Virus record (IMG/VR): IMGVR_UViG_3300011008_000067
Span: 57,661-121,660 of that record
DNA length: 64,000 bases
Source of the DNA: a virus
Lineage: Duplodnaviria; Caudoviricetes
Direction: 5' to 3' (one strand)
Shown in pieces: positions 1-56,736 of the stretch (within the stretch, counting starts at the first letter, position 1; each line of letters starts with the position of its first letter). The notes beneath the pieces were generated by a model, which was given only the letters and a program-made list of their open reading frames with translations, made no database searches and was not told the DNA's origin. The position numbers and the translations under genes were made by a program.

Positions 1-877
1 CAAGTCCTCCCTATCACAATTTGCGCATCTACTCGAACGATCCACATGATCTTTCAAACTGTGAAAGCTATGAAGAATATTACTACTTGCTCGGTCTTGT
101 TATTACAGAGTGTGAGCGTGTTCTTAAACCGGGTGGCAAGTTTGTGATGCAGTTTGAGGATTATAATTAAGGATTATGCTTGACAATCATTTTCAGTTAT
201 GGACTAAGGCATTCTGGCGCAAGTATTCAGCGCAGAGAGCAATGCTTGCACAGGGAAATCTTTATTATAGAAATATGAAAGCAAGAGATACAATCCTCGC
301 TGCTAATGTTGGATTTGTTTACGTATATAAGAAGTCCGGCGATTGCGACTTGATTAAAGCATCAGATATTACACTCGCTGAATGGGCAGAATGGGCAGAC
401 GGTGTATGGAATATTGGTAATTCAGGCATTGGACATACAACACCTTTTGCAGAAGAACTTGTCAAAAGATGTATTAAGTTATGGTCTTGCCCTAATGATA
501 CAATTCTTGATCCGTTCGCTGGAGCAGGAACAGTAAACAAAGTTGCTATCGAGTGTGGAAGAAATGCAATAGGTATTGAACTTCTTAAAGAATTTTATGA
601 TTTGGCAGTAAGCGAAAGATTCAGTAAGTGGGATGATAGCGTTTTTGAATCTGATGATAGCATTGAAAAGATGAAAGAAAGATTTACGGAGCAGCTTGAA
701 ATCGGAAAGATTCAAAGTGAAAACGCAAAGAAAGCCAAAGAAGAACAGAAAGCCTTACAGCAGAGAAAGAAAGATATTCGCGCTGAAATCAAAGAATTAG
801 AATCGCAGTTAAAAGCATTAGGATTAAAAGCAAAAGAGATTAAAGAAATTAAGGATAGTGCTATTACAGGTAATTAA
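1..877 (+). pseudogene. Beta-class DNA amino-methyltransferase (N4-C/N6-A), 5' end outside window, interrupted at ~168-176
   Basis: Frame from nt 3 reads SPPYHNLR...ECERVLKPGG...EDYN then TAA (168-170). The rest (HTTPF, ILDPFAGAGT SAM motif, coiled-coil tail) is in another frame from 176. Confidence 0.8.
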
Positions 878-879
878 TA

Positions 880-1616
880 ATGCAAAATAATTATGAAAGT
901 GTTACTTTGTGGGGGGGGGGGATTGCTTAGTCCTAATGAGCAATATCCAAGACAAAAGTATAGACATGATTCTTTGTGATTTACCTTTTGCATCAACAAG
1001 AAATAAGTGGGATTGTTTAATCCCATTTGAAGAATTGTGGAAACATTATGAACGAATTATAAAAGATAACGGCGCGATTGTTTTGTTTTGTGATGGCATG
1101 TTTACAGCTAAACTACTCATATCAAATCCTAAACTATGGAGATATAACCTTGTATGGGATAAACAAAGAGGATGCGATTTCTTAAATGCAAATGTTAAAC
1201 CATTAAAATCACATGAAGACATAGCCGTATTTTATAAAAAGAAACCTACATATAATAAACAGTATTGGTACTCAACTCCATATAAACGCACAAAGAATGG
1301 AAGTCTATCAACAAATTATGGATTCAGAAACGAAGCATTTTCAGAAAGCGAAGATGGAAGAAGAAATCCTTTAAGTATCTTGTCATTTCCGCGCGATAGC
1401 GACAGATCACATCCGACACAAAAGCCTGTTGCATTACTCGAATGGCTGATAAAAACATACACAAATGAAGGCGATATGGTATTAGACAACTGTTGCGGTT
1501 CTGGAAGTACAGGTGTTGCATGTGTAAACACAAATAGAAAGTTTATCGGTATGGAACTTGACGAAAAATATTTGCAAATTGCAAAAGAAAGGTTAGGTGT
1601 AAGCGATGCAGTATAA
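880..1616 (+). CDS. Beta-class DNA N6-adenine methyltransferase with out-of-frame poly-G tract near its start
   Basis: GDCL..IDMILCDLPF, HPTQKP and VLDNCCGSGSTG motifs. ATG880 reads MQNNYESVTLW and is thrown out of frame by G11 at 911-921. Confidence 0.88.
911..921 (+). repeat. G11 homopolymer (candidate phase-variation switch)
   Basis: Longest G run in an AT-rich window; lies in codons 11-14 of a methyltransferase. Confidence 0.9.
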
Positions 1617-3963: not shown

Positions 3964-4105
3964 TAATCGAAAGAAAACATTATTAGAAACAATACAAGAA
4001 TTGTTAGGGGAAAATAAATCTGTCTATGCAATCTTTAATCAAGATGATGTAGTTGCAAATACGAACCGATTGAAAAGGAAGGAAAGGCAAAATAGGCAAT
4101 GAGGA

Positions 4106-4345
4106 ATGAATATGTTTAAAAGGTTATTCAAAGAATTAGGTTATATAAGCAAGAATGATTTGATCGAAAAAGCAGTAACGATATATCTTAATCACAGTGG
4201 CGCAACTAATGACGAGAAAGAATTTTACTATGATTGTGGGAATTGCAATGCTCTGAATATTCTTTTTACAGAACTTGGAATCAATCTGACAGATTATGTT
4301 AAGCGTGAAAACATTAAACGTGTTTACGGAGGACATGAAATATGA
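4106..4345 (+). CDS. hypothetical protein
   Basis: 79-aa ORF in a compact operon. Confidence 0.55.
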   Translation: MNMFKRLFKELGYISKNDLIEKAVTIYLNHSGATNDEKEFYYDCGNCNALNILFTELGINLTDYVKRENIKRVYGGHEI

Positions 4346-4719
4346 CACTTGAAGAAGCGATTAAACACGCCGAGGAAGTAGCACAAGAAAAGCGATATGA
4401 GTATCAAGAATGTTTAGCTGTGCATGATATGGAAGATGCAATGGATTGTGGAAAATGCGGAGAAGAACACGAACAGATTGCGGAATGGCTGAAGGAACTG
4501 TCGAGAGCAAGGACACTCTTGAAAGCAACACATGAGTTGCTTGAATCCGCACAGCCAGAGCGGAAGAAGGGGAATATGTGGCTTATTCATAAATGGGGTG
4601 ATGATGCTAAGTGTTCCAACTGTGGAAAACATTTTGATAATGTATATGACATGGAAACCCATGATAGATTCTGTCGGTTTTGTGGCGCAAAAATGATAGG
4701 AATTAAAGGTATTAAATGA
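4342..4719 (+). CDS. phage protein with C-terminal zinc ribbon
   Basis: MTLEEAIKHAEE..EHEQIAEWLKEL N-terminus; CSNCG...FCRFCGAKM. Confidence 0.7.
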   Translation: MTLEEAIKHAEEVAQEKRYEYQECLAVHDMEDAMDCGKCGEEHEQIAEWLKELSRARTLLKATHELLESAQPERKKGNMWLIHKWGDDAKCSNCGKHFDNVYDMETHDRFCRFCGAKMIGIKGIK

Positions 4720-4753
4720 TTTAAGAACAAGCAAATAATGCGGAGGGATAGAA

Positions 4754-4957
4754 ATGACATTTTTGCAGAACGTAGCAATCATTACATTAGTTGTTATTTT
4801 TGAGGCTATAGTTGTTTTTTTAAGTATCTTTTTCACATGCGAATTAAACAAACCATATAGATATGTATCAACTGCTGTATTGGTATCTTTAAATCTTATT
4901 GCATTAGGAATAGTAGTTATTGCGTGGGCGAATGGTTTTGTTTTTCCTTTAAATTGA
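4754..4957 (+). CDS. small two-TM membrane protein
   Basis: Two hydrophobic helices; GGAGG RBS. Confidence 0.6.
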   Translation: MTFLQNVAIITLVVIFEAIVVFLSIFFTCELNKPYRYVSTAVLVSLNLIALGIVVIAWANGFVFPLN

Positions 4958-4966
4958 GGTAATAAA

Positions 4967-5272
4967 ATGATAATTGATAAAGTGATTAGTGATTTTAAAG
5001 AAAACGCGAAATCGTTTAGCAATATTGGTTATCCTGAACATTCAATGAAATATCAGCAAGCAGCAGAATGGCTTGAAGATTATAAACGTCTACTAAAGAA
5101 AAAAATTAATCGTCCAGTTGAGTTATATGCTATAGAAGAGATTTCAAGTGGGAAAATAATATTTAATGCCAGAGGTGGCGCATATAAAGATAAAGAACTT
5201 GCAATAAGAAAACTAAACGAATTGGGTTCTTGTAGTCATAGATTGGTTATATATAAACTATTGGAGAACTAA
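4967..5272 (+). CDS. hypothetical phage protein
   Basis: GAGGT RBS; QAAEWLEDY segment resembles that of 4342-4719. Confidence 0.6.
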   Translation: MIIDKVISDFKENAKSFSNIGYPEHSMKYQQAAEWLEDYKRLLKKKINRPVELYAIEEISSGKIIFNARGGAYKDKELAIRKLNELGSCSHRLVIYKLLEN

Positions 5273-5274
5273 AA

Positions 5275-5697
5275 TTGAGAGGATATCCGAACTTAGAATT
5301 AATTGAATACAAATGCAAAGAAAACGCGATGGAAAAATATTCAGATGTTTTGCAAAATGCATTATTTTTGATGTGTAAAATGGATGTTTTTATGCAAACA
5401 TGGGCTAATACTGCTACTGGATTTGATCTTAAATCCTATGCTTCAGGACAAGCATTTACAGATGAATATACGACAGTATGCGAATTGTCATGGTGTAAGA
5501 GAAGTGATGATAAGTATAGACTTATAGACGTAGAAGATAGAATATACTGTGTGTTTTTCGGAAATGAAGTGGCATACATTGTTATAAATCCATCAGAGCA
5601 ATTTTTTGATGATTTGAAAAACCGAAAAATGAAATCGCAAAGAGAAGCGTTAAAAGAGTATAAGGAAGGATATATGGTAAAAAAAGATGACTGCTAA
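5275..5697 (+). CDS. hypothetical phage protein
   Basis: 140 aa, GGAG RBS, TTG start. Confidence 0.6.
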   Translation: MRGYPNLELIEYKCKENAMEKYSDVLQNALFLMCKMDVFMQTWANTATGFDLKSYASGQAFTDEYTTVCELSWCKRSDDKYRLIDVEDRIYCVFFGNEVAYIVINPSEQFFDDLKNRKMKSQREALKEYKEGYMVKKDDC

Positions 5698-5878
5698 ATT
5701 ATGTTGTAAATGCGGTTCACTTCCTACCGAAGAACTGTATTTTGATTATAACAAAAATAAAATGGTGTTTAGATTTTATTGTCCTCAATGCGGAATCACG
5801 GGAAATACACTTAATGATAAAGAAGAAGCATTAAAGGACTGGAATGAAATAAATAGTATTTTTAAAGGAGCGTGTTAA
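5687..5878 (+). CDS. Lar-like zinc-finger protein
   Basis: CCKCG...CPQCG...EEALKDWN pattern. Confidence 0.55.
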   Translation: MTAKLCCKCGSLPTEELYFDYNKNKMVFRFYCPQCGITGNTLNDKEEALKDWNEINSIFKGAC

Positions 5879-6672
5879 TGCAGTATCAAGGCGGTAAATA
5901 TATTATATCTTCTGATGTAGCAAGAATTATAGGGGGGGGGTACAAACCAATTTGAGATATCAAGGTGGAAAATCAAGAATAGCGAACGAATTAGCGCAAG
6001 CCATGAGGGGGGCATAATCGCAATGTTCTCGTTTCATTGTTTTGCGGTGCATGTAATGTAGAAGCAAAGGTCAAAGGATATGACGAGATAATTTGTAATG
6101 ATAATCAGCCGTATTTGATAGCATTGTTCAAGGCTTTGCAAGACGGGTATGAATTGCCTGAAATAATCACTGAAGAAGATTATCATTATGTTAAAGATCA
6201 TAAAGAAGAAAATCCGGCTTTAACTGGATTTGTCGGATTCGCTTGTAGTTTTGGCGGTAAATGGTTTGGCGGTTATGCAAGGGATAAGGCGCAAGTAAAT
6301 TATGCTTTACGTGGTAAGAAATCATTAGCACAAAAGATGAAAGGTCTTATGGATGCAAAGTTTACTTGTCTTGATTATCGAGATGTTGAATTACCAGATG
6401 GCTGCGTTATTTACGCTGATCCACCTTACGCAAATACAACAAAATATGCTAATCAAGATTTTGATACAGAATCATTTTGGGAATATATGAGAAAGATAAG
6501 TAAAAATCATATTGTTTATATATCTGAGTTAAATGCGCCGGATGATTTTGTTGCGATTTGGCAGAAAGAAATTAGAAGAATATTAGATGTAAACAAGAAT
6601 AACCAATTTAAATCAACGGAGAGGCTATTCGTTCATAGAGATAATTTAGAAATAATACAAAATAATGCTTGA
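5878..6672 (+). CDS. Dam/D12-class (alpha) DNA adenine methyltransferase with duplicated N-terminus and two G tracts, currently out of frame
   Basis: YQGGK motif X occurs twice (ATG5878, TTG5952); SLFCGAC motif I, CND, SFGGKWFGGYAR, IYADPPY. G9 at 5932-5940 and G6 at 6007-6012. Confidence 0.87.
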
Positions 6673-6696
6673 TTATTTGTGAAAAAGTGCTATACT
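6669..6696 (+). promoter_or_regulatory. sigma70/sigA-type promoter
   Basis: TTGATT-N16-TATACT with extended TG. Confidence 0.6.
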
Positions 6697-6717
6697 ATTC
6701 TTATGGAGGTAAGCACG

Positions 6718-6981
6718 ATGAATTGTCCGAAATGCCATAATGTAATGAAACATGTGCTTAGATTCACAAAAGAAAGAAATTGTGAATTATATGTTTGTGA
6801 TAAATGTTATTTTGAAACAAAACCTAAAAGAATAATATATAACAGTTTAGAAATAATACAAAATAATACAGGAAACAATGCAAAAGATTGTAACAATAAA
6901 CTAACTGTAAAGCGAAAAGAATCAAGCAAGAAAAAGAGGAAGAAAAAGAATGTACAAAATAGAAATAAAACAAGTAGGTAA
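6718..6981 (+). CDS. zinc-ribbon protein with basic tail
   Basis: GGAGGT RBS before ATG6718; CPKC...CDKC. Confidence 0.6.
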   Translation: MNCPKCHNVMKHVLRFTKERNCELYVCDKCYFETKPKRIIYNSLEIIQNNTGNNAKDCNNKLTVKRKESSKKKRKKKNVQNRNKTSR

Positions 6982-7135
6982 GTATACCGAAACTGTGACT
7001 GGCACTGTGCTTAATTTAGAAGATTTGCTTAATACTATACCAGTGTTATCTAAGGTTTTTCATGATTGCAAAATAACGTTCTATGAGTATACAGAGTCAG
7101 ATGCTAAAGAAACAAAAGAAACAAATGATGAGTAA
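6950..7135 (+). CDS. hypothetical protein
   Basis: 61 aa, GAGGA RBS. Confidence 0.5.
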   Translation: MYKIEIKQVGKYTETVTGTVLNLEDLLNTIPVLSKVFHDCKITFYEYTESDAKETKETNDE

Positions 7136-7158
7136 ATTCATCAAGAAAGGAGATTTGA

Positions 7159-8529
7159 TTGTATTCAGCATATATAACTACATTGAAAGAATTAACAAAA
7201 CATCCTAATGCCGACAGGTTACAAATCGGCATTGTATTTGGAAACAATGTAATCGTTGATTTGTCATATTCAGAAGGACAAAAGGTTGTTTATTTTCCTG
7301 TCGATGGACAGTTAAGCGAGGAATTTGCGACAGATAATAACCTTGTAAAGAAATATGTTCCTGTTTCTGAATTGAATGAAGATCAGATTGCTGGTAAACA
7401 GATAATTCAAAAAGACGGAATTGACTGTATTAATGTTGGCGGTTACATGGATGCAGAAAAACGCAATATAACGGCACTTAAATTACGTGGCGAAAAGTCG
7501 GATGGTCTTATTCTTCCTATTGAAACACTTTCTAAATATGTAGATATTACTACATTGAAAGATGGCGATCAGATTACAGTCATTGATGGTCATGAAATTT
7601 GTAGAAAATACATACCAAAGAGAAGAAGAAACAATTCACAAGGTACGAGCAATAAAACTAAAAATAAGAAAGAACTGAAAGAAACAGTATCCTATCCGCT
7701 TTTTATTGAACATATCGACACACAACAGTTGGCTTTCAATCAGAGCGCATTTAGAGAAGGAGATATTTGCTACATCACATTGAAGATGCATGGCACAAGC
7801 CAAAGAACAGCGAATACCATTCAGGTTACAACTAAGAAAAGAAATATTATTCTGAAAAAGTTATTTAAAATGCGCGACAAAAAAATAACGAAATATCAGT
7901 TCATCACAGGAACAAGAAGAACAACGCTTCGTGAATACGAAGGTGGCTATTACGGAAGTAACAAGTTCAGACAGAAATATCATGATTTCTTTAAAGATAA
8001 ACTACCAAAAGGAATGGAAGTATTTTATGAGGTAGTTGGTTACACAGAAGGTAATCAAACAATCATGGGTAGATGCTCTAATAAACTTGTTAAGGATAAG
8101 AACTTCCAGAAACAATATGGCGATGAAACAGTTTTCTCGTATGGTTGTGATGTCGGTGAAAACGATGCGTATGTTTATCGCATGATTATGATGAACGAAG
8201 ATGGCGTTATGGTTGAACTTCCGTGGGAACAGGTTCAGGTTTTTGCGGAGAGAATGGGCGCGAAATGTGTTCCTACATTTGAAAAGTTTATTTATACAAC
8301 GTGGGATGATTTGATGTCGAGGGTTGAAAAATACTATGATGGTGCAGACCCAATAGGCAAAACACATATCAGAGAAGGGGTTGTTGTAAGGATAGATAAT
8401 AGACCGAAGTTTGTAGCATATAAACACAAGAATTTCTATTTCAAATGCCTTGAGGGAATTATTAAAGATACATCTGATGCTCCAGACATGGAAGAAGCTG
8501 AAGAACTAATTGTAGAGGACGCTGTATGA
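7159..8529 (+). CDS. RNA ligase (Rnl2/DRB0094-like)
   Basis: N-terminal HPNADRL; nucleotidyltransferase motifs KMHGTS, FYEVVG, EGVVVR, YKHKN. Confidence 0.8.
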   Translation: MYSAYITTLKELTKHPNADRLQIGIVFGNNVIVDLSYSEGQKVVYFPVDGQLSEEFATDNNLVKKYVPVSELNEDQIAGKQIIQKDGIDCINVGGYMDAEKRNITALKLRGEKSDGLILPIETLSKYVDITTLKDGDQITVIDGHEICRKYIPKRRRNNSQGTSNKTKNKKELKETVSYPLFIEHIDTQQLAFNQSAFREGDICYITLKMHGTSQRTANTIQVTTKKRNIILKKLFKMRDKKITKYQFITGTRRTTLREYEGGYYGSNKFRQKYHDFFKDKLPKGMEVFYEVVGYTEGNQTIMGRCSNKLVKDKNFQKQYGDETVFSYGCDVGENDAYVYRMIMMNEDGVMVELPWEQVQVFAERMGAKCVPTFEKFIYTTWDDLMSRVEKYYDGADPIGKTHIREGVVVRIDNRPKFVAYKHKNFYFKCLEGIIKDTSDAPDMEEAEELIVEDAV

Positions 8530-9464
8530 GTAAGCCTAAATTAATAATGTTGGTTGGACTTGCCGGAAGTGGTAAGTCCACATACGCAAAAACATTAAGT
8601 AATGAGTATAATATTCATTCTTCTGATTCGTTGCGCGAAGAAATGTTTGGCGATGTGAATGAAAATTCAAAAGAGTGCAATGAAAAATTATTTGTTGAAT
8701 TACATAGACGGATAAAGAGTGATCTTAGAAACGGAAATAATGTTATATACGATGCAACAAATTTAAACAGAAAAAGAAGGATTGCATTTCTTAGAGAATT
8801 AAAGAATATAAACTGTTTTAAAACATGCACACTTATCTTAGCACCATACTATGTTTGTATCGATAACAATAGCGCAAGAGATAGAAAAGTTCCCGATGAT
8901 GTGATTAAAAGAATGTATATGAATTTTCAGCCTCCGCATAAAAGCGAAGGTTGGGATGATATAGAAATAATTTTTAGCTTCGATACATCTAATTTTTCGG
9001 ATTATAAACTTTCTGTTCTATATAATCACGCAACAGGAATTGATTTTATGAATCAGGGTAATGAGCATCATTCACTTACATTAGGTGAACATTGCAGGAA
9101 AGCAGCGAGTTATATACTCGAACATTATCCAGAAAAAGAATTGCTTTATTTATCAGCACTTTTACATGATGAAGGAAAAGTATTCACAATGACAGCAGTA
9201 AATAGTAAAGGTGAAAGAGATGGAAATTGCCATTACTATCAGCATCATTGTGTAGGTTCTTATGATTCTATTTTTTATATGTATAATATGGGGTATCGTG
9301 TAGAAGATTTGTTGTATGTAGCTAATTTAGTTTATTATCATATGAGTCCATATAGAGAATGGAAGAACAATGAACGACTTGAAAATAAAATGAAAAGTCT
9401 TCTTGGTGATAATTTATATAGTGATATCATTGCTTTACATGATGCGGATAAATACGCGCATTAG
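8526..9464 (+). CDS. polynucleotide-kinase-like P-loop domain fused to HD phosphohydrolase
   Basis: GLAGSGKST, YDATN, then EH...LLHDEGK...H...YHM...D HD motifs. Confidence 0.85.
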   Translation: MSKPKLIMLVGLAGSGKSTYAKTLSNEYNIHSSDSLREEMFGDVNENSKECNEKLFVELHRRIKSDLRNGNNVIYDATNLNRKRRIAFLRELKNINCFKTCTLILAPYYVCIDNNSARDRKVPDDVIKRMYMNFQPPHKSEGWDDIEIIFSFDTSNFSDYKLSVLYNHATGIDFMNQGNEHHSLTLGEHCRKAASYILEHYPEKELLYLSALLHDEGKVFTMTAVNSKGERDGNCHYYQHHCVGSYDSIFYMYNMGYRVEDLLYVANLVYYHMSPYREWKNNERLENKMKSLLGDNLYSDIIALHDADKYAH

Positions 9465-42367: not shown

Positions 42368-45300
42368 TTATTTCCCTCTTTTATCATTTCATACAATTCC
42401 TGTATTGCTTTTACAATATAACCAAGCATATAGAAATCATTTACACTTTTAACATTCATAGTTCCATCTTTGTTATAGCCACCACCGATTGATAATTTAT
42501 CATCTATCTTTTCAAGTTCATCTGCGATAAAACCTATTTTTTGATGACCTTTTCCGTCTTTCCAATCGAAAGATCGCAATGATATCTCATTAAGAACATC
42601 TATTGCAGATTTTATTTCCGTTTGTGCTATATTCTTTTTTAATCGTATATCGGATGATGGAACAGATAAATATTTTGTTGAAAAATTAGATGTTTCCCAT
42701 TGACCTATTAGAATAAGACCGTTTGAATTTGAGCCTATACAAGCCATTCTCTTTGTATCTGTCGTAGCTGAAGCCAATGGCTTTCTTACTGTTCCACTCC
42801 AATCTTTAAAGTAGAAGTGTGATGCGTTTGCTACAGAAATAGAATCATTATCATCTGTATATAAAAATATCGCTTTATTAGCAATAGCATTAAAAATACC
42901 GAATGCAGTTCTTGATGAAGCATTACCACCATAAATAAACATATCATGCGCATAAGTGCCATTAGAATTTGCAGAAGAAATCCTTAAACGTCTTTCAGTT
43001 CCTACGGTGGAACGACCAAGCCACGTTGTTTTATTATTCAAAGAAACCTGTCCATCGAAATCAATATATCCATTTGATGTGTTGGCTTTAAAGGAAGTAC
43101 ATATTAATGATTTCGGAATCCTTGTATTTCCGTCTTTATCTAATAGCTGAAGCGTTCTTTCATAACAATGATTTGATATATAATTATATTGTTTTATGCG
43201 AATTGGTATGTAATGACGATCATTATCTAAACTATCATTTGTGTATGACGTAGATATTTCAAGGTATCCATTTTCATCTGTTGCGTTACCGCTTATGCTC
43301 CAAAAAGTTATATCATCATCTTTTTTACAACTGATACTATTAATTACTATGATGTCGTTATTCACTTTTATATTGTCAACTTCAATATCTTTAACAACAA
43401 CATTGCCATCTTCAATACGAAATGATTCACCGTATTTAAAGTAGTCACTTCCGATATGCGTATATTGATTAAATTGAGCAAAACTACGACCATACCTTAC
43501 AAATGCAAAAACATCAAGAATTGTAATATCAGTAAGAGGATAGTTGCTCCCAAGATTCGCATCATTGTTTATTACAAGATTTTTGATGTATGTATCCATG
43601 TCGTTTTCATGGAAATCATGCTCGTACTTGTAATGTACATTGTTTGTTGGGTAGGTAATAACTACTTCATTTGAAACATCTACTTCTGAATATAGAATAG
43701 GAACAGTTATATAGTTTGTTCTCGTAACAGTATTTGTGGTTGTTGTAGTAGTTCCACTTGAAGAACTTCCTACTAATTGCTCATCTTCATCTGAATCATC
43801 ATACAATTCTAAATCGTCAATAATAACGATATCATCATCTGTTTCTTCTGTCTCATATGAATACATTATATTTAGACTTATATACAACAATTTTAATGAA
43901 GTGTTGTCATTGTCGTTCTCAGGGTCTTTTTGTCTTTCATATGAAATAGTAAACGTATCATATTCGTCATTTGCATTTGGGAATATTCTTTCATTTTGCT
44001 GATAAATTTTATATTCGCCGGATGTGGCAGTGTAATATCCGTCAAATCCATTATCTGAAATATTAAATGGATTCACACTGCCTATAGTGCCACTTTTAGC
44101 ATTTATATTACCAGTAAGATTTAAATCACCATCTGTATTGATATTAAATATGGATGAATTACCTTTTAATATTTCAACGATGGATGATGCGCTTGGATTT
44201 ACAATAAAAGAATTGTTTGTATTTGAGACAGATAAACCGTTTTCATCAAAGGTCAACGAACCTGTTTCATTATATAAGCCAAGTGTTTCTCCGATAATCA
44301 TTTTTCCCACGATTGTTTCACCGTTTATACCATATGCGGTTTCCATTTCTTCTGTTACAGGATTAATGTAATGAAACCTTCCTATGGCTGTTTTTGTAGT
44401 ACGCCAGTTATCAGTAGTAATAGCAATGGTAGAGTTAATGAGTTTCATTTGCTCATCTTCATAATCTTCCGTGATAGGATCGAATTTTCTTAAAAGCAGA
44501 CCATGTTCATCAAATGACATATCTTGTCCTATCGCAGAATTGACAATCTTTGTAAGCGTTGCGTCTAAACCATCTTCAAACCATGAGTTTACAATTTCCG
44601 TTGTTTCTTCACTTTTTGATGCTTGACGTTCAATAGATTGATAAGACGTTGCCATACTACTTGCTTGATCTATGATGCTTTTTAAATCTGATACATCATT
44701 ACCACTATTTATTACATCTGAAAATTCAACAGATAATGAATCTATATCGTCAAAATTTACGGTATACCCTATCAATCTCAGCTTATATATTTCACCGTCA
44801 ATTTTTACTCTTATCCAATTACCGACACAGAAATAATCTAATATCGGTTCAAATCCTTTAATTGCCAAAAGGTTTTTTAATGTAGCATCAATGCTATGTT
44901 GAAGAGTAGCGGATTTAATAAGTTCTTTATTTGCAACGTCTATAAATTCTCTCGCTCTTTCTAATAGCTGTGGATTTGTTAATCCATCAGATATATAATT
45001 TCGATTTGAATAAATTGCTTCACGCCGATAAGAACAAAATTCCTTCCATAAATCATCACCGATAAATTCTTTGAAGTCTAAACTCTTTTGAATTAATGAT
45101 CTTATCTCAGACGCTTCGTTATATACTGATTCTATTATTTCGATTTCGTCTTGTCGTAAAGCTATTTCGCATTCGATTGCTTTTAATTTTGTATAGTAAT
45201 CTTCGTAAAATGTTTCATATAGATTTGTTTCTGCGTTGAGCCAAGTTTCATTATCAGATATTCCTTGTTCGACAAGGATATCTAAGCACGACTGACAATT

Positions 45301-46935
45301 TTCATGGAATGACTGTAATTGGTTCAAACAGTATTTTTTTAATTCGTCTACAAATTCTCCTGAATATGTAGCATGTGAATAAACACACGCTTTACTAAAC
45401 AAAACCAATACATCACATTCATCAGTTTTTTCTTTATTTAGCACATATTCAATTTTCTGTCTTATGAAGGATGAATAATCATCGTCTATCTCAATCATTA
45501 TTTCTTCTGATTCAGCGGTATCATCCTCATCTGAGTAATTAGTTACTGAAAATTTTCCGCGCCAAATGTACAGCGTTGAATCATATGATGACTCTTTTAT
45601 TTTTACTTGATAAGTAGAACGTACAATAGCTTTTGCTAAAGACAATACATTTAAATCTACTGTTGAACTTGAAGCAGAATGCAAATTCGCAATAGAGATA
45701 GAAGATAGAGATTCGCTATTAAGCAACTCTACTTGTTCTGATGCGTTTGTATCTGACATTTCTACTGTTGGCAATAATCCACTTTTTAAATATATTTGAA
45801 AATCTAATGCACTATATAAAATATCAATAAGAGAACTGAAACCTTGTTCATTGCTTAATGCATTTATTGTCTCATCGTAATCTTGATATTTCTCCACAAC
45901 AGAATTGTATTGGCTTAATAAATCCTCATCTATCAACACAGGATATTCATTTTGATAATACGCATATAACTCATCATAATTATTAAGTACATCTTTTAAT
46001 TCATCTGACATATCATCTTTAATATTGTCTGGTATGTACCACAAATATTCTGTTCCGTTTGGATTACTTAACATAACTGATGCAGTCATTAAATCGTCAC
46101 CAGTATCTAATTTAAAACAAGTATTTACTTGATTTGTATCAGAAGATAGCTTGATATTATCTGCAAGATTTTCGCTTGATACAAACACGGTAGTATCTTC
46201 TCCATAACCACTTGTTATGTTTGCACTTCCACATTTAGGACATATGCCATTATTAAAATCTCCGCGATATCCACATTCATTACAATAGTTTTGCAAATCA
46301 TAAACATATATCCCTCTTTCTGGATAACCGTTTTCATCAGACTTTTGCGAAATCACAAATAAACATCCTATTTCCTCTGATATTTCCTGAAATGCATCAT
46401 ATATAGAAGTGTTGTCAAAAGTAAATACTCTCTGTATATCTTTTATTGTAGAGTCAACATGCTTAATCGTGTAATGTGGTGCTTTTTCTGTAATTCGATT
46501 CAGCAAAGATGCCTTTGGATTTTCATCGTCATATAATTTAGTTGGAACATAATCATCCAATTCTATATCATCTTCTGTATTTATTTGTATATCAAATAGT
46601 TTGATTGCTGATAGTTCAGCTTCACCGATGGAACGAGCGTTTATGATTTTAACAAGTTCATTTGATTCATCAATTTCTACGGTTATCTCAAACCAAGCAT
46701 CCCATTCCTTACACCACACTAATTTAAAATCTATAATTTCATCCCATAAGTTAGTAGGCACATTTCCATACATCTTTGATACATTGAAACTAAGTGAATT
46801 ATAAGAATTAAAATTATCAGTAAAATGTATTTCGGTTGAAGGTATAACACCTATTTTTTTGCCACTTCTTTTAGAAAGAACAATAGTGGGAGATTTTACA
46901 TTTTTAGCTGAATCAAATTCAAGTTTTATCGCCAT
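42364..46935 (-). CDS. tail spike/Tal-like protein with C-terminal S74 intramolecular chaperone
   Basis: Follows Dit; SDIRLKKNI...IGFIADEL...KAIQEL. Confidence 0.85.
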   Translation of the reverse strand: MAIKLEFDSAKNVKSPTIVLSKRSGKKIGVIPSTEIHFTDNFNSYNSLSFNVSKMYGNVPTNLWDEIIDFKLVWCKEWDAWFEITVEIDESNELVKIINARSIGEAELSAIKLFDIQINTEDDIELDDYVPTKLYDDENPKASLLNRITEKAPHYTIKHVDSTIKDIQRVFTFDNTSIYDAFQEISEEIGCLFVISQKSDENGYPERGIYVYDLQNYCNECGYRGDFNNGICPKCGSANITSGYGEDTTVFVSSENLADNIKLSSDTNQVNTCFKLDTGDDLMTASVMLSNPNGTEYLWYIPDNIKDDMSDELKDVLNNYDELYAYYQNEYPVLIDEDLLSQYNSVVEKYQDYDETINALSNEQGFSSLIDILYSALDFQIYLKSGLLPTVEMSDTNASEQVELLNSESLSSISIANLHSASSSTVDLNVLSLAKAIVRSTYQVKIKESSYDSTLYIWRGKFSVTNYSDEDDTAESEEIMIEIDDDYSSFIRQKIEYVLNKEKTDECDVLVLFSKACVYSHATYSGEFVDELKKYCLNQLQSFHENCQSCLDILVEQGISDNETWLNAETNLYETFYEDYYTKLKAIECEIALRQDEIEIIESVYNEASEIRSLIQKSLDFKEFIGDDLWKEFCSYRREAIYSNRNYISDGLTNPQLLERAREFIDVANKELIKSATLQHSIDATLKNLLAIKGFEPILDYFCVGNWIRVKIDGEIYKLRLIGYTVNFDDIDSLSVEFSDVINSGNDVSDLKSIIDQASSMATSYQSIERQASKSEETTEIVNSWFEDGLDATLTKIVNSAIGQDMSFDEHGLLLRKFDPITEDYEDEQMKLINSTIAITTDNWRTTKTAIGRFHYINPVTEEMETAYGINGETIVGKMIIGETLGLYNETGSLTFDENGLSVSNTNNSFIVNPSASSIVEILKGNSSIFNINTDGDLNLTGNINAKSGTIGSVNPFNISDNGFDGYYTATSGEYKIYQQNERIFPNANDEYDTFTISYERQKDPENDNDNTSLKLLYISLNIMYSYETEETDDDIVIIDDLELYDDSDEDEQLVGSSSSGTTTTTTNTVTRTNYITVPILYSEVDVSNEVVITYPTNNVHYKYEHDFHENDMDTYIKNLVINNDANLGSNYPLTDITILDVFAFVRYGRSFAQFNQYTHIGSDYFKYGESFRIEDGNVVVKDIEVDNIKVNNDIIVINSISCKKDDDITFWSISGNATDENGYLEISTSYTNDSLDNDRHYIPIRIKQYNYISNHCYERTLQLLDKDGNTRIPKSLICTSFKANTSNGYIDFDGQVSLNNKTTWLGRSTVGTERRLRISSANSNGTYAHDMFIYGGNASSRTAFGIFNAIANKAIFLYTDDNDSISVANASHFYFKDWSGTVRKPLASATTDTKRMACIGSNSNGLILIGQWETSNFSTKYLSVPSSDIRLKKNIAQTEIKSAIDVLNEISLRSFDWKDGKGHQKIGFIADELEKIDDKLSIGGGYNKDGTMNVKSVNDFYMLGYIVKAIQELYEMIKEGNK

Positions 46936-46948
46936 AATAAAACCTCCT

Positions 46949-47758
46949 TTAAGGAATATCTTTAATAATTGGCGTGTATATTATTTCTAATGTGCAAGGC
47001 AGAGATGCAGTTATTGTATTGCGCCTATTATCATATGTATTCCCAATGCAGAAAAATTCATAATTAAAATCCTCACTAATTTTATGTGATTCAATAGATG
47101 AAGATATTATTTGTGTTTCTGCATTCATTGTAAGAACTTCGCCATTTGTGCAATTTTTAACTCGCATAGTTGTATTGCATAAATCATTGCTGATTTCTAA
47201 ATCACCACTATCTTTACATGTGACTACAATGGAAGGATATATGAATCCAATTTCGTCAGACATATCATTAAAAACATATGAGGGTTTTATTTCGCTAAAA
47301 TCCCACTTCATGCGTTGTTCAAGTCCATATCCAAAAGGCTTATCAGTTTCCATTGTTAAGCGAAGTCCATATAGTTTCTCGGCTACTTTAATTTTTTCGA
47401 TATTAAAACTTGCGTTATAATAGCAAGTATCATAGTCTAAATCAGGATCGCTGATTCTGAACTTTAAAAATTCTTTGCGATTAAGCCATCTCATTAAGTC
47501 TCTAAACTCGTCATTTGAGATTTCTAAATCATCATATACATCAGGGTCTTTACAAATATCAAATACTGCCTCGATACATTCTTCATATTGTGTACTTGTC
47601 AGAGAATGAATATTACCTCCATATCTTGATACTTTTTTAAAAGATATATTTGAACCAGCAGATGTAATATTTGTTCCAGATGTATCATTGAAATCGCAAA
47701 TAATAAAGCCAAAATCGTTAAGATACTGACCATCATATTCAAAATCTACAGCGTTCAT
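46949..47758 (-). CDS. distal tail protein (Dit)-like
   Basis: DFEYDGQYL.DFG, RWLNR, TDKPFGY; position after TMP. Confidence 0.75.
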   Translation of the reverse strand: MNAVDFEYDGQYLNDFGFIICDFNDTSGTNITSAGSNISFKKVSRYGGNIHSLTSTQYEECIEAVFDICKDPDVYDDLEISNDEFRDLMRWLNRKEFLKFRISDPDLDYDTCYYNASFNIEKIKVAEKLYGLRLTMETDKPFGYGLEQRMKWDFSEIKPSYVFNDMSDEIGFIYPSIVVTCKDSGDLEISNDLCNTTMRVKNCTNGEVLTMNAETQIISSSIESHKISEDFNYEFFCIGNTYDNRRNTITASLPCTLEIIYTPIIKDIP

Positions 47759-47958
47759 GATTGATCCTCTTTTAAGTTAGTTTTATTTAGTTCCAATGTT
47801 AATATTCGTATTAGTGAATCATAGTTGTTTTTTGCTGCTTTAGCTTCTTCAATCCTTTCTTCCCATTCAGTCTTTAGCTGACTGCATTCTATTAACATTT
47901 GGTTTGCCCTTTCTATTTTTTCTTCAAGAGTTCTTTTTAATTCTTGTTCTTCGTCCAT
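47755..47958 (-). CDS. small coiled-coil protein
   Basis: 67 aa, GGAG RBS. Confidence 0.5.
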   Translation of the reverse strand: MDEEQELKRTLEEKIERANQMLIECSQLKTEWEERIEEAKAAKNNYDSLIRILTLELNKTNLKEDQS

Positions 47959-47975
47959 TTTCTCTCCAATAATAA

Positions 47976-48001
47976 ACGAGGGTGATTAATTTCACCCTCG
48001 T
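47976..48001 (-). terminator. hairpin after tape-measure gene
   Basis: acgagggtga / tcaccctcgt 10-bp stem. Confidence 0.6.
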
Positions 48002-48003
48002 AC

Positions 48004-51000
48004 TTATTTAAATCTTAATCGATATTTCATATCAGATGATTTACCATTAAGTTGCCCTAAAGTCATAGCTTGAACTAATTTCTCAAAATTCTTATCCTGT
48101 TGCATTTGCGAAACAAGTTCATTGTAATTTCTTACATTAGGCATAACAAAACTTATATTATCAAAGTTCTGTTCAACCTTTGTTCCGTTATGGATACCAC
48201 TAATAGATGATGTATTTAAACCTGATAAATTATTTGCTATGAAATTAGCAGGATTATTTGCAGCTTGCCACAAGTTTTCACTTGCCATAGCGTTATAAAT
48301 CCTATCGTCTGCACCAACACGAGTAAGTACAGCATGGTCAGAAGCACGTAAATACACTTCATTCGCGCCTTCTTGCGTCCATGCATAACCAGTAGTTCCA
48401 ACACGTTTTGCGCCTGTCGCATAACTTTTCCTGTTTTCGTGTTGACCATATTGTAACCAGTGTTTATAGTATTCTTTTGTGTTCTTTCCAAAAGCCTTCG
48501 CAACATCTTTATTGTTGCTCTTGTACTTGCTGAAGTTAAAATTCTTATTTGGTGAACGACCTTCATTGATTCCATATGACATAAAATGTTTGTAGTATTC
48601 AGCAAGGTTATTACCGAACGCCTTCTGTAAATCTTTATATTGATTCTTGTAATAATGTACATTAAATAATGCGTTGCCTTGTCTACCTTCTTTCATACCA
48701 TATTGTTTAAAGTGTTCAAAGTATTTCTCTTCATCATTTCCAAAAGCCTGTTGTAAATCTTTGTTGTGTGAACGGTAGAAGTTATAATCATAAACATACG
48801 CCCAATCACCGTATTTAGCAAATTGCTTTTGAGAATTTTGTTTAGCAAGTTCCGTTTGATACTTCTTTTCAGAAGTTTTCATTATATCACCTATGGAAGT
48901 TGTAGCCTTAGATGCGTTGCTTGCTTTTGCCTTTGTGCTTTTTGCTTTTTTCGCTGCATCAGCCTCTTGTTTTTTCTTATTGCTTGACTCAGCACCGATA
49001 GCAGAGGAGTCAGATTTAGCAACCGCATCGGCTTGTTGCCATAATCCATAAACAGCATCACGAACACTAAGAATAGTTTGATTGATAGTTGTTAATGCTG
49101 ATAAATGTCTATCGCCATAGACGTTCAACACAGTATCAAGACTTCCATCCCAAATATCTTTTAATTCTGAACTTAACGTCAACCCAACAGAATCAGCTTT
49201 TTCTTTAATTGTTTCAGAAATAGAAGATGCATTTTCGTTTGAAGAATCTATTACGTTTTCTATAAGCGTATCAATGTTATCCAATCTCTTGTTTAATGCT
49301 TCTTGATAATCGTCATAGAAATTATCAAGCATTTTCTTTGAATCGGACACCATGCGATCATACTCTGTTTCTTCTAACTTATCTTGTTTCTCTTTTAACT
49401 CGACACTAATCTTTTGAATCTTTGCGCGAGTTTCTTCTGTAACGTCATTAGCATACGCCGATAACTGTTTCTGGAGCGAAGATATTTCAGATGTTTGCTT
49501 TTGAATGTTCTTTTGATAATCATAAAGGTCTTTTTGATTATCTAATGCATCTTTGTACTTTTCTATGATATCATCAAGATAATCTAATTCCTGTTTAAAC
49601 CCATCCGATATAAGGGATTTAATAGAATGTTTCTCATCCTCGGCAGCTTTAATAGATTCTCTTTGCGCTTTTAGTAATTCCTTTCTCCGTTCTAACAAAT
49701 CAGAATTAGAACTATCATTTGCAATTTCACTATTAAGTCTGATAATTTCATTCGCGTATCTGTCTGCTTGGTTCATTGCCACATCATAATTCATAGCATG
49801 TAAACCAAGAATAGCTTTTCCATTATCGTTGATTGCGCCATTATCTTCAAATATTACACTATCTTCAAATAAGTCAATTAGGAACTCCGCTTCTTCACGT
49901 ATATCAGAGATTGAATTTTGTAGATAATCGAATTTATCCCATTTGATTTCTCTTACTTTATTAGCATATTCTTGAGCCTTCTTGATAGCTTCTTGTTCTG
50001 CTTCTACGGCATCATTGATTCTTTCAGTCATTTCGTACCATGCTTCTGAACCACGCCTAATTTCGCCAGTACCTACTGCTTTTGTTAATTGCTTTTGAAG
50101 GTCTTTTGCTAATTGTGAAGCATTTTTAGCATTGCTTTCCGCTATACTTTTTAGCTTTGAATAATAAACGCTACTTGTTTTTAACCCCTTTGCTTCTGCA
50201 ATGTCGAGATAATTATTATATTCTTTTGATAAATGTTCTGACAGAGACAATTTATTTTTGTATTCATCATAGATACTATTGAATACTTTTACATATTCTT
50301 TAGAAATGCTATTTGAAACTTTAATAATATCTTCGTTTAAGTCATTTATCTCATCCTCGACTTCTTGAATATCCTTTAATAATTTATAGTATTCTTCAGA
50401 ACCTTTTGCTACAATGCCTTTTGTTGTTCCGCTTGCAAGTTTATCTGTAAGTTTCGCAAGTTCACTTTTCCGTTTTGATCTTTGGTCTGAAAGATTATTT
50501 ATTAAAGCAAGATAAGATTTGATATTTGCATTTGACGCATCTCTGCTGAGTGACATTTGTACATAATCACTCGCAAAATCTTCTCTTCTTGTTATTAATG
50601 ATTTTACTTTGTCAGCGGTTTGTTCTAAATTTTGAAGCGCATTTTCCCATGTTGTAATGATGTTCTTGAATTGACTTGAATACAAATCTTTTAATTCAAG
50701 TTTAAGATCACGAATTGCTTCTTGACACTTGACTGCGTTTTCATACCACTTTTTATATTGTTCTATGTTTTTACGTGTTTCATCGTCATATTCATTAATA
50801 TCAATCGTTCCGGCTATGACTTTATCACGTAAATCTTGCGCGAGTGGTACGGAATTTGCTTGACCTATATATCTTTGATATGCTTGACCTTGTAAATCTA
50901 TTTCTTCTGTTGTTTTCTGAATTTGACGTACAAGATTATCATTACGAGTAGACCATTTTGCGAAAGTGTCTTTTGATGCTTTATCGAGTGTTTTTATTTC

Positions 51001-54000
51001 TTCCTCGACACGCTTCAATTTAATTTCTATCCAGTCAATGTAATCAGCTTTAGAATCTTTAGCTTTAGAAGAAGATGATGATGAATTTCCACCTCCACCA
51101 CCGCCTGAACTTCCACCGCCAGAGCCTCCAGAACCTCCAGAGCCACCGCCACTATTTGAACTTCCTCCAGACGATGAAGAACCACCAGAGCCAAGTCTAA
51201 AAGCTGTACCTTCAGCTAATGCTCGTCCTCTGCGATTGCCGTGTGTTATTTTCCCTTTTTCAAATATCTGTTTTGTTTGTTCCGCATTGAAGATTATATC
51301 GTCCTTCTTATACGCGAACATTTCTGCACCAGTATCGCCAATAGTAAAGAATTTGCCATCCCTTACAACTAACTCGCGTCCAAGTTCACCACCAAGCGCA
51401 ATACCGCTTGATTTAGTTCCCCAATCACCTCTTGCATACGCTGTACCTCTTGCATGTGCCGTTCCGTCAACAGCAGGAGGTGAACCAACTGTAACAATAT
51501 GATATGTAACAGTTCTACTAATATTAGGATATGACGGTGGAGAAGGCGCATTGATGTGATAGTTTACCGCCGGATTTTGGTCTGGATAAACTGGTGCTGC
51601 TGGTGCATTAATTCCATACGCTACTTGCGGAGATTGATCCTCGTATTGTGGTGCTTCTGGTGCATCTACATTTACACTGACATTTATAGCTTGACCGCTT
51701 AATCCACTAATCGCGCCACTTGCAGCGGAAGTATCGGCATTAACAGTTGCAGTAACGGATTGACCTTCTAAAGAACTTAATGCGCCATCTGCACCAGATG
51801 TATCAACATTCATATCAACATCTACTTGTTGACCTTGAAGTGATTCTGCTGCGCCTTCTGCCTGTGACGTATCAACATTCATGGAGACATCTATTTGTTG
51901 ATTTGACAGAGAACTTATTTCGCCTTCTGCTTGTGATGCATCTGCGTTAAGTGTTGCTTCAATCTCTTGCCCTGATAATGATCCTATTGAATCTTCTACG
52001 GTTGCTGTGTTTACATTAGCATCTAATTCAATAGCATCGCCTTCTGGTGCTTCAATTTCAGATGCTTGAATTTTTCCACCTTCGATAGTTGCTTCTTCGC
52101 CACTAAGACCATCTGTATCCAATTCATTTGCTTTGACTTTAGCTTCTATTTCAAGTTCAGATGAACCAGATAATTCTTGCATGTCGGATTGGAATTGAGC
52201 GAGCATATCGGGGTCTAATGCAGCATTCTTTAGTGAAGCAGTAGACATTGGTTGTATACCGCTTTCTTCTGCTAATTGCTCTTGTGCGTTTTTAGAAGAT
52301 TCTTTTTGAATATTTGAAACTTCTTCAGATGATTTTTGTGCGCCCTCTACATGACCTTCTTCAGCACCTTTTGAAACAGCGTCTTTAACTTCGTTCTGCA
52401 AAGCAGTAGTGTCTTGTTGATTGAGTGTATCAATTACCGCTTGTTGTGCTTGGATAAGTTGTTCTTGTGCTTGTTGCCTTGCGCCTTCGGAAGTCGCATT
52501 AGCTAAATTTTGTTTAAATTGATCGACTGCTCCGAGTTGGTCTTTTAAAGTTACTGGTATTTCAACGCCTTCAGAAGTCAATCCTTGCATTTCCATTGAT
52601 TTCTGAATGTAAGAACCTTGTTGTGCAATTAACTGCGCATTTGTTTCTCTCGTTCCGACAGAACCATTTCCGTTACTTCCTTCACCTTCACGCTGTCTTT
52701 GCAACTGATCCATTTGGTTCTGAATTTCAGCCAAATCATACTCGAACTTAATATGAACTACTTGTTCTTCAGTAAGCCCTGATAAATCTTCTTCAAAAGA
52801 ACTATATTCTTGGTCGAAACCTTCTATGATGTCTTTTACTCTATCTTTGCCTTTTCCGCTTTCCATATCATCGTAAACGGATTTAAGACCAGCGAGTGAG
52901 TCAGAAAACTCGTTAAGCATATCGCCTGACTTTTCAACACCATCAAATTCATAACCATATGCTTCAAGTGCGCTTAATACTGTTTCGACAGCACCAACAC
53001 TAACTCCTAATTTATCTGCTGCTTCTGCTGTGGAATTAAATTGTGATTCTATATCCCACAATCCTTTATCGTCTGATTTGTTTACGTTAAATAATCCGGC
53101 ATCTGCGAAATCGTCTACTGCATTCATCATAGACTGCGTTTCATCTTCACCAAACCATCTTTCAGCTTTTGCTAATCCTTGTTCAAACGCCTCTTGATAA
53201 ACATCGGCAGCATAGCCTCCGGCTTCTTTTGCTTCTTTAGCTTGTTTCTTTAAATTCTTAGGACTTAGGAACTGCGCGATAGATTGGAAATCGTCTGTTC
53301 CTGTTTTTCCTTCTTCGAGAAGTTCTTTTCCTTTCTTTACGGCTGATTGAATTGTAGACCAACCAGCGTCTTGGTCTGCGGATTTAGACGCTTCTTCTAC
53401 GTCCTCGACAGATACTCTAAAACTATCAAGTTTATTTGTAGCACCATCGATTTCTTCTGAGGCATCTTTAAAGTAATCTCTTAATTGTTTATAATTACTT
53501 ATGCCTAAGTCATCCATAGTCAAACCGACTTCGCCTAAAGCCTGTTTTAGATTCTTACCCTCTTTGACGGAATCTCGCAAATAATCTTTAATTGCCCCTT
53601 TTCCTTTGCCATCAAAAAAGTTTTCAAGATTATCTAATGCTTTTTCAGCAGGGGTCATGTCAATTTGTCTGAATCCTTTTGCAATATCATTTACATCTTC
53701 AATGTATTTCTTTGCGTAATCAGAATCAGCACCATATTTCAACATGGTATCAGCTTGGTCTTGAATGATGTCAAGATAACCAGCCGTTTCAGCGGTAGCT
53801 TGTGAAATCTTAGAGTTTAAATCTTCCCTTTGTTTAATTTCTTGATCTGTTAAATTACCTGATTTCTTTGCTAATTTTTCATCTAAACGACTTGATTCTT
53901 CTTTTAACGAATTGAGACTTTCAAGAGATTTTCTGGCAAGGTCGATGTTTGTTGTACCACCTTCTTCCCAAAGGTCTTTTTCATCTTTTCCAGTGTATCT

Positions 54001-54901
54001 TCCGTTTTCATCATAAACAGCTTTTTGGCTTGTAATATAATCCCAAACAGAAGCAATACTGCCGAACACGCCTTCGCCGTGTTGTCCTCTAATATGCTCC
54101 CAATAAGACTTTTCCGCTTTTGAAGCCTGTTCTGTATCTACTAAAGCGGTTTTCTTTTTCGATTCAGCAATCTTTTCTTGAATTTTAATTTGATTCTCAA
54201 GTTCTGCACTTGCCTCTGATAATCTTGAAAGTTCTGCTTCATCCACAAAGTTTAGAGTTGTATCACTCGCTTCAACTTTATTTATTATATCATCAACAGT
54301 ATCAGCACCTTCTACTTCGATATTGTATTTAAGTGCTATACCTTTTGCTTGCTCAAAGTTTTCACCTTGTTTGCCTTGAAGAGATTCAAGTTTAGACTGT
54401 GCATCTTCGTATTCTTGAACCGAAACTTCTGCTTGATCTTGCGCTCTTGTCCAACCAGAATTAAGATAGTCAAATCCTTTATAAGCACCAAAAGCAACTG
54501 CTGCTGCTATTAGCGGAGCAGCCATTGTAGCCATACTTGCTAAACCGCTACCAAACGCTCCTATCCATGTCGCACCATCTTTAAAAGCAGAAACCACGCC
54601 CATAATGCCCTTGGCAAGCGTACCACCAACAAGTAAAGTTCCGACTAAACCTATCTTGTCTGTTATTGCATCAAATACTCCAAGTATACCAGTGAGTCCA
54701 TCTAAGACTGCACCCATGTCACTACGTTGGAATAGATTTTGCCAAATGCCTGTACCTGTTTCTTTAAGAGCATTTAGTTTGTATGATATTGAATTTGTTA
54801 TGATTTCCATTTCTGCGTCTGCTGCGCCAGCAGAAGTGGACATCTTTTTTATTGCTTCTTCGGCTTGTGAAAAATTGGAAATTACGGCAGCACCAATTTG
54901 T
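48004..54901 (-). CDS. tape measure protein, exon 4
   Basis: Frame open upstream of ATG54843 (QIGAAVISNF...); long Ala/Ser/Lys helical protein upstream of Dit. Confidence 0.9.
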
Positions 54902-56502: not shown

Positions 56503-56736
56503 GCCCTCGTCTTGCCGAATAACTCATCGAGAAGTTGGGCTTGGTTTTTATCCGATAAATCATCCCAAACTGCCGAAATTTCCTTCAGAACTTGATAGGT
56601 AGATTTGTATGTATCCTCATCTTCCATGATCGAAACTTTCCCACCTGTCAACTCGTAAACATCACCTTTAATATTCACAAGATTGTCATCAAGTTCCTCG
56701 GTTTCCTCATTCATGCCTCGTATACGCATCGAGATT
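56503..56736 (-). CDS. tape measure protein, exon 3
   Basis: ISMRIRG...YKSTYQVLKEIS.VWDDL...LFGKTRA, typical TMP segment. Confidence 0.88.

Follow-up and report, generated by a model that had tools for sequence, protein, structure and literature searches.

We analysed a 64,000-nucleotide (nt) stretch of viral DNA (the window), namely the last 64 kb of the 121,660-bp contig in IMG/VR record IMGVR_UViG_3300011008_000067 (metagenome-assembled; estimated 78% complete; 34% GC), which carries at positions 5865 to 6672 a gene for a Dam-like adenine DNA methyltransferase preceded by two alternative N-terminal modules, A and B, each with its own start codon and each followed by a run of guanines (Table 1). 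An original prediction, made from the DNA letters alone, had described this layout and proposed a combinatorial slippage switch. Upon re-reading and recomputing the locus, we found its coordinates, tract lengths, and frame arithmetic to be correct base for base, including its assignment of the catalytic body to the frame of module A.

Table 1. Features of the two-headed methyltransferase locus (window coordinates)
Feature	Position	Strand	Remarks
Shine-Dalgarno sequence AAGGAG for module A	5865..5870	+	7 nt upstream of ATG5878; read directly
Module A, first alternative N-terminus, MQYQGGKYIISSDVARII	5878..5931	+	ATG5878 start; Gln-type head, Q at position 2
Tract 1, G9	5932..5940	+	fixes the frame of A relative to B
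Dual-coded segment (spacer + module B)	5941..6006	+	B frame LRYQGGKSRIANELAQAM; −1 frame TNQFEISRWKIKNSERISASHE
Module B, LRYQGGKSRIANELAQAM	5952..6005	+	TTG5952 start; Arg-type head
Tract 2, G6	6007..6012	+	connects either head to the body
Catalytic body, D12-class (Dam-like) N6-adenine DNA methyltransferase	6013..6672	+	starts with CAT 6013; stop codon 6670-6672 included

The assembled allele, with G9 in tract 1 and G6 in tract 2 (G9/G6), is OFF, as neither start reaches the body: reading from module A continues past G9 as YKPI and then meets TGA at 5953-5955, and reading from module B meets TAA at 6015-6017 just after G6. The body itself is uninterrupted over 219 codons (6013-6669). Other tract lengths give other outcomes. 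With tract 1 at G8 or G11, A enters the −1 frame of B, which is open across the dual-coded segment and supplies A with the linker TNQFEISRWKIKNSERISASHE; with tract 1 at G7 or G10, A is fused in frame to B. Tract 2 places module B in frame with the body at G5 or G8, and places the −1-frame read-through from A in frame at G7, such that G8/G7 or G11/G7 would yield an A-headed enzyme of 264 to 265 amino acids (aa). A state table computed for tract 1 at G7 to G11 and tract 2 at G5 to G8 contains nine frame combinations, of which three give a B-headed enzyme (one of them also makes an A-B fusion), one gives an A-headed enzyme, and five give none. Starting from G9/G6, the state in which B heads the enzyme (B-ON) is a single slip in tract 2 away, and the A-headed state (A-ON; G8/G7) is one slip per tract away. 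At G9 the distance between the two starts is 74 nt (2 mod 3), whereas at G8 it is 1 mod 3; in the window and its clade, tract 1 itself is located 4 to 11 nt upstream of the B start. In the G9 phase, the B start TTG (5952-5954) overlaps the stop of A (TGA, 5953-5955; ATT-TGA/TTG-AGA, 5950-5957), and this TTGA overlap may couple translation of A and B.

The G tracts of the window are far beyond what chance would produce. In its 34.7% GC sequence, G3 occurs 127 times, G4 23 times, and G5 once, and G6, G9, and G11 are each present once. The whole 121.7-kb contig holds six runs of at least six guanines, all of them G on the + strand, which is the coding strand, and all inside a 15.6-kb stretch of DNA-modification genes.

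Comparison with close relatives revealed that both tracts vary in length. The nearest relative (L123; metagenome contig Ga0326512_10001136) encodes an enzyme 99% identical to that of the window, and it shows 0 mismatches over the 378 nt corresponding to window positions 5638-6015, with tracts of G8/G5 instead of G9/G6; the flanking 3.6 kb contain 124 differing positions. Owing to its G5 tract, module B of this relative runs into the body as an uninterrupted 239-aa open reading frame (ORF) from TTG (B-ON). The original prediction had staked itself on such length variation among relatives, and this pair of alleles supplies it. Likewise, tract lengths were G8/G8 in L089 (body identity 83%; B-ON, 245 aa) and L128 (80%; B-ON), G8/G6 in L125 (84%; OFF), and G5/G9 in L126 (84%; OFF). 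Alignment A2 comprises ten near-identical loci of another two-tract clade, taken from different samples; over ~215 nt they hardly vary except at the two tracts, which range from G7 to G10 each, and between them they cover B-ON, A-ON, A-B fusion, and OFF. OFF, B-ON, and A+B-ON, three of the states predicted for a combinatorial slippage switch, are thus each found among near-identical loci with tract length as the sole difference. The locus has the sequence features of a contingency locus, namely, a repeat inside the reading frame that sets the frame, and repeat lengths that differ between near-identical sequences so as to give both ON and OFF phases.

Could the OFF state of the window be an assembly or sequencing error in a phage that is really in frame (e.g., G8/G5), with the locus still being a switch? 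Such a miscall would fit the origin of the window in a metagenome-assembled IMG/VR contig, in which G runs are error-prone, and the fact that the nearest relative differs by one G at each tract. However, OFF alleles are common across independent assemblies and collections, several assemblies agree on tract lengths (e.g., six loci with G7), the lengths span 5 to 13 and so exceed a one-base error, and the non-homopolymeric (GA)n and (TA)n repeats show the same behaviour. We consider a miscall unlikely.

To define the family, we searched with the body in IMG/VR, GTDB genomes, and metagenomes, obtaining 194 loci, 150 of them distinct. These originate from phages and prophages in human-gut, rumen, and other metagenomes, and the titled records are mostly metagenome-assembled genomes of gut or rumen Clostridia (Ruminococcus, Oscillospiraceae, Lachnospiraceae, Acutalibacter). 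Megablast of window positions 5000-8600 against 50,697 GenBank phage records gave no match and no cultured relative. Two tandem M-x-Y-x-G-G-K modules are present in 106 of the 150 distinct loci, so that the tandem YQGGK-type modules with a tract, for which the original prediction had suggested a search, do recur. Where the modules meet the body there is a repeat, and its place in the protein is always the loop that links helix 1 to beta strand 1. Its kind varies: poly-G (G5-G13), (GA)n of 8 to 35 nt that is translated as Arg-Glu repeats, (TA)n, and, in a single case, poly-C. A tree of the bodies shows about 20 changes in the kind of repeat and at least three origins of the two-tract layout; a single module without a repeat is the rule in distant outgroups, among them Streptomyces and Flavobacteriaceae.

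The distribution of states across this family is as follows. Among distinct loci with two modules and one tract (n = 81), 29 are B-ON, 12 are A-ON, and 40 are OFF; those with two modules and two tracts comprise 6 B-ON, 6 A-ON, 3 A-B fusions, and 4 OFF; and one-module loci without a repeat are intact in 26 of 29 cases. Natural loci therefore include full-length ORFs from either start. Those beginning at A reach the body through the −1 frame in 18 distinct loci and as in-frame A-B fusions in 3, with lengths of about 250 to 296 aa where computed. On this point the original prediction has to be amended: it had derived an A-only enzyme from deletion of the 72 nt between the tract ends (5941-6012), a deletion looked for and not observed among the 150 loci, and A instead gains the body via the −1 frame of B (G8/G7 in the window). 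A single-module member of the window's clade (L131) could be either ancestral or a deletion product.

These data also bear on whether the enzyme is made from any allele by recoding at the level of expression, with either RNA polymerase slipping or the ribosome shifting frame on the G tracts. Slippage during transcription is a possible effect of long homopolymers, and relatives have tracts of 9 to 13 G. Yet the length differences between otherwise identical loci are seen in the DNA, dinucleotide repeats of 8 to 35 nt occupy the same site, tracts of G5 to G6 are short for slippage, and a second head in a second frame would be needless if every frame were decoded. Recoding as the explanation of the locus is, in our assessment, quite improbable.

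The spacing of the heads has a direct consequence for the coding of module B. In 80 of the 81 one-tract loci the heads are 1 mod 3 apart, as judged on sequence the arrangement of a multi-start locus of the licA type, so that a ribosome setting out from the first start reads module B in its −1 frame. This reading turns MRYQGGKSRI into N-E-I-P-R-W-K-I-K-N-S and, given the right tract length, leads into the body, making the enzyme about 20 to 30 residues longer. In dual-module lineages differing by >15% in module B (n = 29), the −1 frame of B is open across the module in all 29, as against 7.7 expected by synonymous-codon resampling, and the +1 frame contains 1 to 5 stops in every one. Among single-module relatives, 5 of 17 have this −1 frame open (3.8 expected), which amounts to chance level. 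On the strength of this resampling, the comparison shows that selection keeps the −1 frame of B open.

The two heads themselves are similarly constrained. Over the first 14 codons, the ratio of nonsynonymous to synonymous change (pN/pS) was 0.26 for A and 0.25 for B, with pS at about 0.8 and synonymous sites near saturation; by this measure, purifying selection acts equally on modules A and B. As a cause of the conservation of A, gene conversion between the modules was considered and rejected, because DNA identity between A and B within a locus (60%) is lower than that between A modules of different loci (65%). The constraint on A counts directly against a reading of the locus as a decayed tandem duplication, in which the gene would be a pseudogene with module A and the G tracts as its remnants. 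Such decay would account for the failure of both starts to reach the body in the assembled allele, for the weak TTG start of B, and for the departure of A from the family consensus after GGK. However, the unusual A sequence of the window (KYIISSDV) is found again in L089, where the changes are mostly synonymous (six, against two conservative ones); the body is intact over all its codons and the 99% identical relative is in frame; and the layout, with its selected open −1 frame, is retained in 106 loci. Decay is thus already largely refuted, and we give it next to no credence.

We also weighed whether module A is a leader ORF only, which would provide a ribosome-binding site and translational coupling for B and never form part of the enzyme. 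A Shine-Dalgarno-like word precedes the first start in 54 of the 106 dual-module loci and the second start in 88; in many one-tract loci, GGAGG lies within the last codons of A (S-E-V-I-N), 6 nt before the second ATG. This placement, the stop/start overlap of the window at 5950-5957, and the greater frequency of B-ON than of A-ON would all suit a leader. None of the following would be needed in one, however: (i) the Y-x-G-G-K motif and helix of A, conserved at the protein level through saturated synonymous change; (ii) the −1 frame open up to the tract in 29 of 29 lineages; and (iii) a position-2 residue always unlike that of B (see below). Moreover, the 18 −1-frame loci and the 3 fusions are full length from A. 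A purely leader role is highly improbable, and the roles of A as leader and as enzyme head can coexist. As for other expression signals, a sigma-70 promoter and terminator scan of window positions 4000-7500 gave nothing above shuffles, and a terminator-like hairpin at 6008-6030 was within chance expectation.

The encoded enzyme belongs to the family that the original prediction had assigned it to. The body matches Pfam PF02086 (MethyltransfD12) with an E-value of 2.7e-13 (50.7 bits; gathering cut-off 22), and intact relatives scored 59.5 bits (L089, which matches from profile position 1) and 50.4 bits (L105). Motif I (LFCGAC) lies at 6037-6054 and DPPY at 6418-6429 (ADPPY, 6415-6429), and both modules contain YQGGK, conforming to the N-terminal aromatic-x-G-G-K motif; Y3, G5, K7, F, G, and DPPY are invariant in alignments A3 and A4. 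Against the NCBIfam dam model TIGR00571, scores of 45.4 and 54.6 bits fell below the trusted cut-off of 114.85. Because of these sub-threshold scores, the enzyme is, on profile evidence, a distant member of the Dam family and not an equivalog of Dam.

Structures were modelled with AlphaFold for two natural intact relatives, L105 (A-ON) and L089 (B-ON), rather than for the broken gene of the window. Both models adopt the Dam fold, with predicted local distance difference test (pLDDT) scores of 83 (L105) and 87 (L089), and in Foldseek searches chains of EcoDam and T4 Dam ranked top for both (E-values of about 1e-10). More specifically, VIA-align of the L105 model gave Z 17.7 to EcoDam (2g1p_A; root-mean-square deviation [rmsd] 2.7 over 204 residues), Z 16.6 to T4 Dam (1yfl_A), and Z 17.8 to Mcbe1, the rmsd across the comparisons with solved enzymes being 2.7 to 3.0 over about 205 residues. 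In the same model, the head helix (residues 11-20) has a pLDDT of 94 and the −1-frame linker (residues 25-51) one below 50; the low value of this predicted linker is consistent with a tolerated loop. The fold, the N-terminal x-aromatic-x-G-G-K, an FxGxG-like motif I, and DPPY are common to the phage enzyme and to EcoDam, T4 Dam, DpnM, and Mcbe1, although it is only about 20% identical to these solved enzymes. Each of them has a single N-terminus without repeats, in contrast to the two heads and tracts of the phage locus.

The two heads differ systematically at one residue. In EcoDam, K9 and Y138 recognise the first base pair, a contact that is not conserved across the Dam family (PMC4417163). 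In the alignment of the L105 model with EcoDam, model residues 2-3 pair with residues 9-10, and the counterpart of K9 is position 2 of each head. In the window, this is Q in head A and R in head B. Of the 106 two-headed loci, 82 have (Q,R) and 15 have (R,Q) as their (A,B) residues, such that Arg and Gln are complementary in 97, and the residue is never identical in A and B of one locus. Single-module relatives carry R (17), Q (17), L (4), H (3), or K (2) at this position. On the body tree, the Q/R versus R/Q order flipped at least 6 times with complementarity retained. Arg is encoded here by AGA, AGG, and CGN codons, and the pattern is therefore one at the amino-acid level. Because the residue matching K9 always differs, the two forms may differ in site recognition; that the heads read the first base pair differently is a lead rather than a result, pointed to by the alignment. 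It is possible, though not what we would expect by default, that, through slippage, one orphan methyltransferase alternates between two site specificities, or between strict and relaxed recognition, and can also take a double-headed form or be OFF.

Taking the evidence together, the locus is very probably a hypermutable (contingency) locus that controls an orphan Dam-family adenine methyltransferase borne by a gut or rumen phage, with slippage picking the head, the fusion, or OFF. Comparison of natural sequences demonstrates its main premises, i.e., polymorphic tract lengths, four states in nature, and selection that acts on each module and keeps the −1 frame open. The proposed mechanism is as follows. 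The essential N-terminal segment (the M-x-Y-x-G-G-K loop and first helix) would be supplied in two diverged copies with their own start codons, and behind each copy a G tract would fall in the loop that precedes beta strand 1. Slippage while the phage DNA is replicated would alter the tract lengths, as the polymorphism suggests; tract 2 would then select the frame entering the catalytic body, and tract 1 would set the fate of A, which is to stop at the start of B, to enter the −1 frame of B, or to be fused to B. B-ON would give a short enzyme with, in the window, an Arg-type head; A-ON would give a long enzyme with a Gln-type head, in which module B read in the −1 frame serves as a disordered linker; and A-B fusion would give a two-headed enzyme, OFF being the fourth outcome. 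From conservation and the structural model, we infer that the A-headed and fused forms are active, and the sequence of the natural loci suggests that both start codons are used.

Several observations weigh against this interpretation. OFF is the commonest state in one-tract relatives (40 of 81), which would also fit frequent loss of function. Homopolymer lengths in a contig consensus may be off by one base. In addition, because module B of the window starts with TTG and tract 2, at just six guanines, is less prone to change than tracts of at least eight, the G9/G6 allele of the window could be drifting toward inactivity.

Regarding function, switching presumably proceeds at a high rate within phage populations, with bet-hedging as its inferred benefit. 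Progeny would be methylated, differently methylated, or unmethylated, which would suit hosts with methylation-sensitive or methylation-dependent restriction. By analogy with the logic of T2 agt (see below), a bet-hedging benefit is likely. In the 121,660-bp contig, the palindromes GGCC (0 versus 95 expected), CTAG (7 versus 146 expected), and GATC (263 versus 498 expected; observed/expected 0.53) are strongly under-represented; judging from these counts, the phage plainly appears to be under restriction pressure.

Several further methylase genes of the phage, and a PAPS-reductase-like gene, also contain repeats. A second methylase gene (PF01555; window 909-1616) carries G11 at 911-921, preceded by ATG 880 and ATG 893, which are 13 nt apart and in different frames, a simpler two-start layout without a duplicated motif. 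At window positions 3-877, another PF01555 methylase gene appears split into ORFs 3-170 and 176-877 by TAA 168-170, and no repeat is nearby; this TAA may be a true stop or may mark a two-part enzyme. Upstream of the window (L088; genome positions 44000-58500), we observed a split PAPS-reductase-like gene with a (GACA) repeat of about 10 units and G8, a PF01555 methylase gene with an in-frame G11, and an adjacent ORF that has a weak, sub-threshold PF01555 match but methylase-like motifs and ends just past G7 (repeat coordinates within L088: 3949-3990, 4067-4074, 7497-7507, and 8483-8489).

A separate observation concerns a 17- to 21-nt motif with the consensus AAATAATACAAAATAAT, which has ~31 + strand sites in the contig (genome 5.6-84 kb) and 2 on the − strand. 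It is often directly followed by TTGACA, about 17 nt, and a TATAAT-like box, an arrangement that suggests an upstream element belonging to a class of phage promoters. The copies at window positions 6646-6666 and 6847-6867 overlap coding sequence, giving the peptide LEIIQNN at the end of the methylase and in the next ORF; LEIIQNN also ends the L089 enzyme.

Phase variation of methylases driven by repeats is textbook knowledge for the Type I and III systems of bacterial pathogens. Phase-variable methylases are usually tied to Type I and III loci (FEMS review, PMC13076061). Bacterial phasevarions (Type III mod, Type I hsdM/hsdS) share with the phage locus the principle that slippage of a coding-region repeat puts a methyltransferase in or out of frame. 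In contrast to these, the phage enzyme is an orphan of the D12/Dam type; its repeat comes after an N-terminal segment that is essential; a second copy of this segment lies in another frame, such that two of the three frames give enzyme; and a second tract adds further states. The licA gene (lic1) of Haemophilus influenzae shares alternative start codons placed just upstream of a slippery repeat, in that case (CAAT)n. Weiser and colleagues reportedly described, in 1989, licA starts in different frames, more than one productive repeat phase, and graded expression. The licA starts add only a few residues, whereas in the phage locus each start comes with a copy of a functional motif, the second of these copies is read as head in one frame and as linker in the other, and the heads differ at a residue expected to contact DNA.

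Phages also possess contingency loci, exemplified by the A-runs of T2 agt and the poly-G tracts of Fletchervirus receptor-binding genes (bioRxiv 10.1101/2025.10.21.683753). For T2 agt, experiments show that ON/OFF slippage escapes modification-dependent or modification-sensitive host defence, and Gomez, Barrick and Waters, in the same study, cite poly-G in a methylase gene of Bordetella phage BPP-1, beyond which citation it holds nothing on methyltransferases (bioRxiv 10.1101/2025.10.21.683753). T2 agt and the window's locus are alike in that a DNA-modification gene is switched by homopolymer slippage. However, T2 agt, Fletchervirus, and BPP-1 have plain ON/OFF tracts, without duplicated N-termini, an overlapping second frame, or paired tracts. 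Our search of the open-access full-text literature turned up no account of duplicated, frame-offset heads on a Dam-type or phage methylase. In this sense, the view of the original prediction that no such architecture was known holds as regards the publications searched, but the layout is not unique to this phage, being that of 106 of the 150 related loci.

Contingency loci were proposed as a general strategy of phages only recently (2025), and the locus described here is more intricate: it holds an essential segment twice, with a second frame overlapping it, the repeat chooses between two heads or none, and a second repeat in some lineages multiplies the states. The design is common in the family and clearly selected, and genes of this kind, which are routinely called fragments or pseudogenes, should not be annotated as such. 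If the Arg and Gln heads do differ in recognition, this would explain how gut phages hedge between hosts that cut unmethylated DNA and hosts that cut methylated DNA. A frameshift-driven specificity switch in a Type II-like enzyme would, if true, be a new way of changing the specificity of a methyltransferase and, multiplied across the other repeat-bearing methylase genes of the phage, would give combinatorial methylomes in its progeny.

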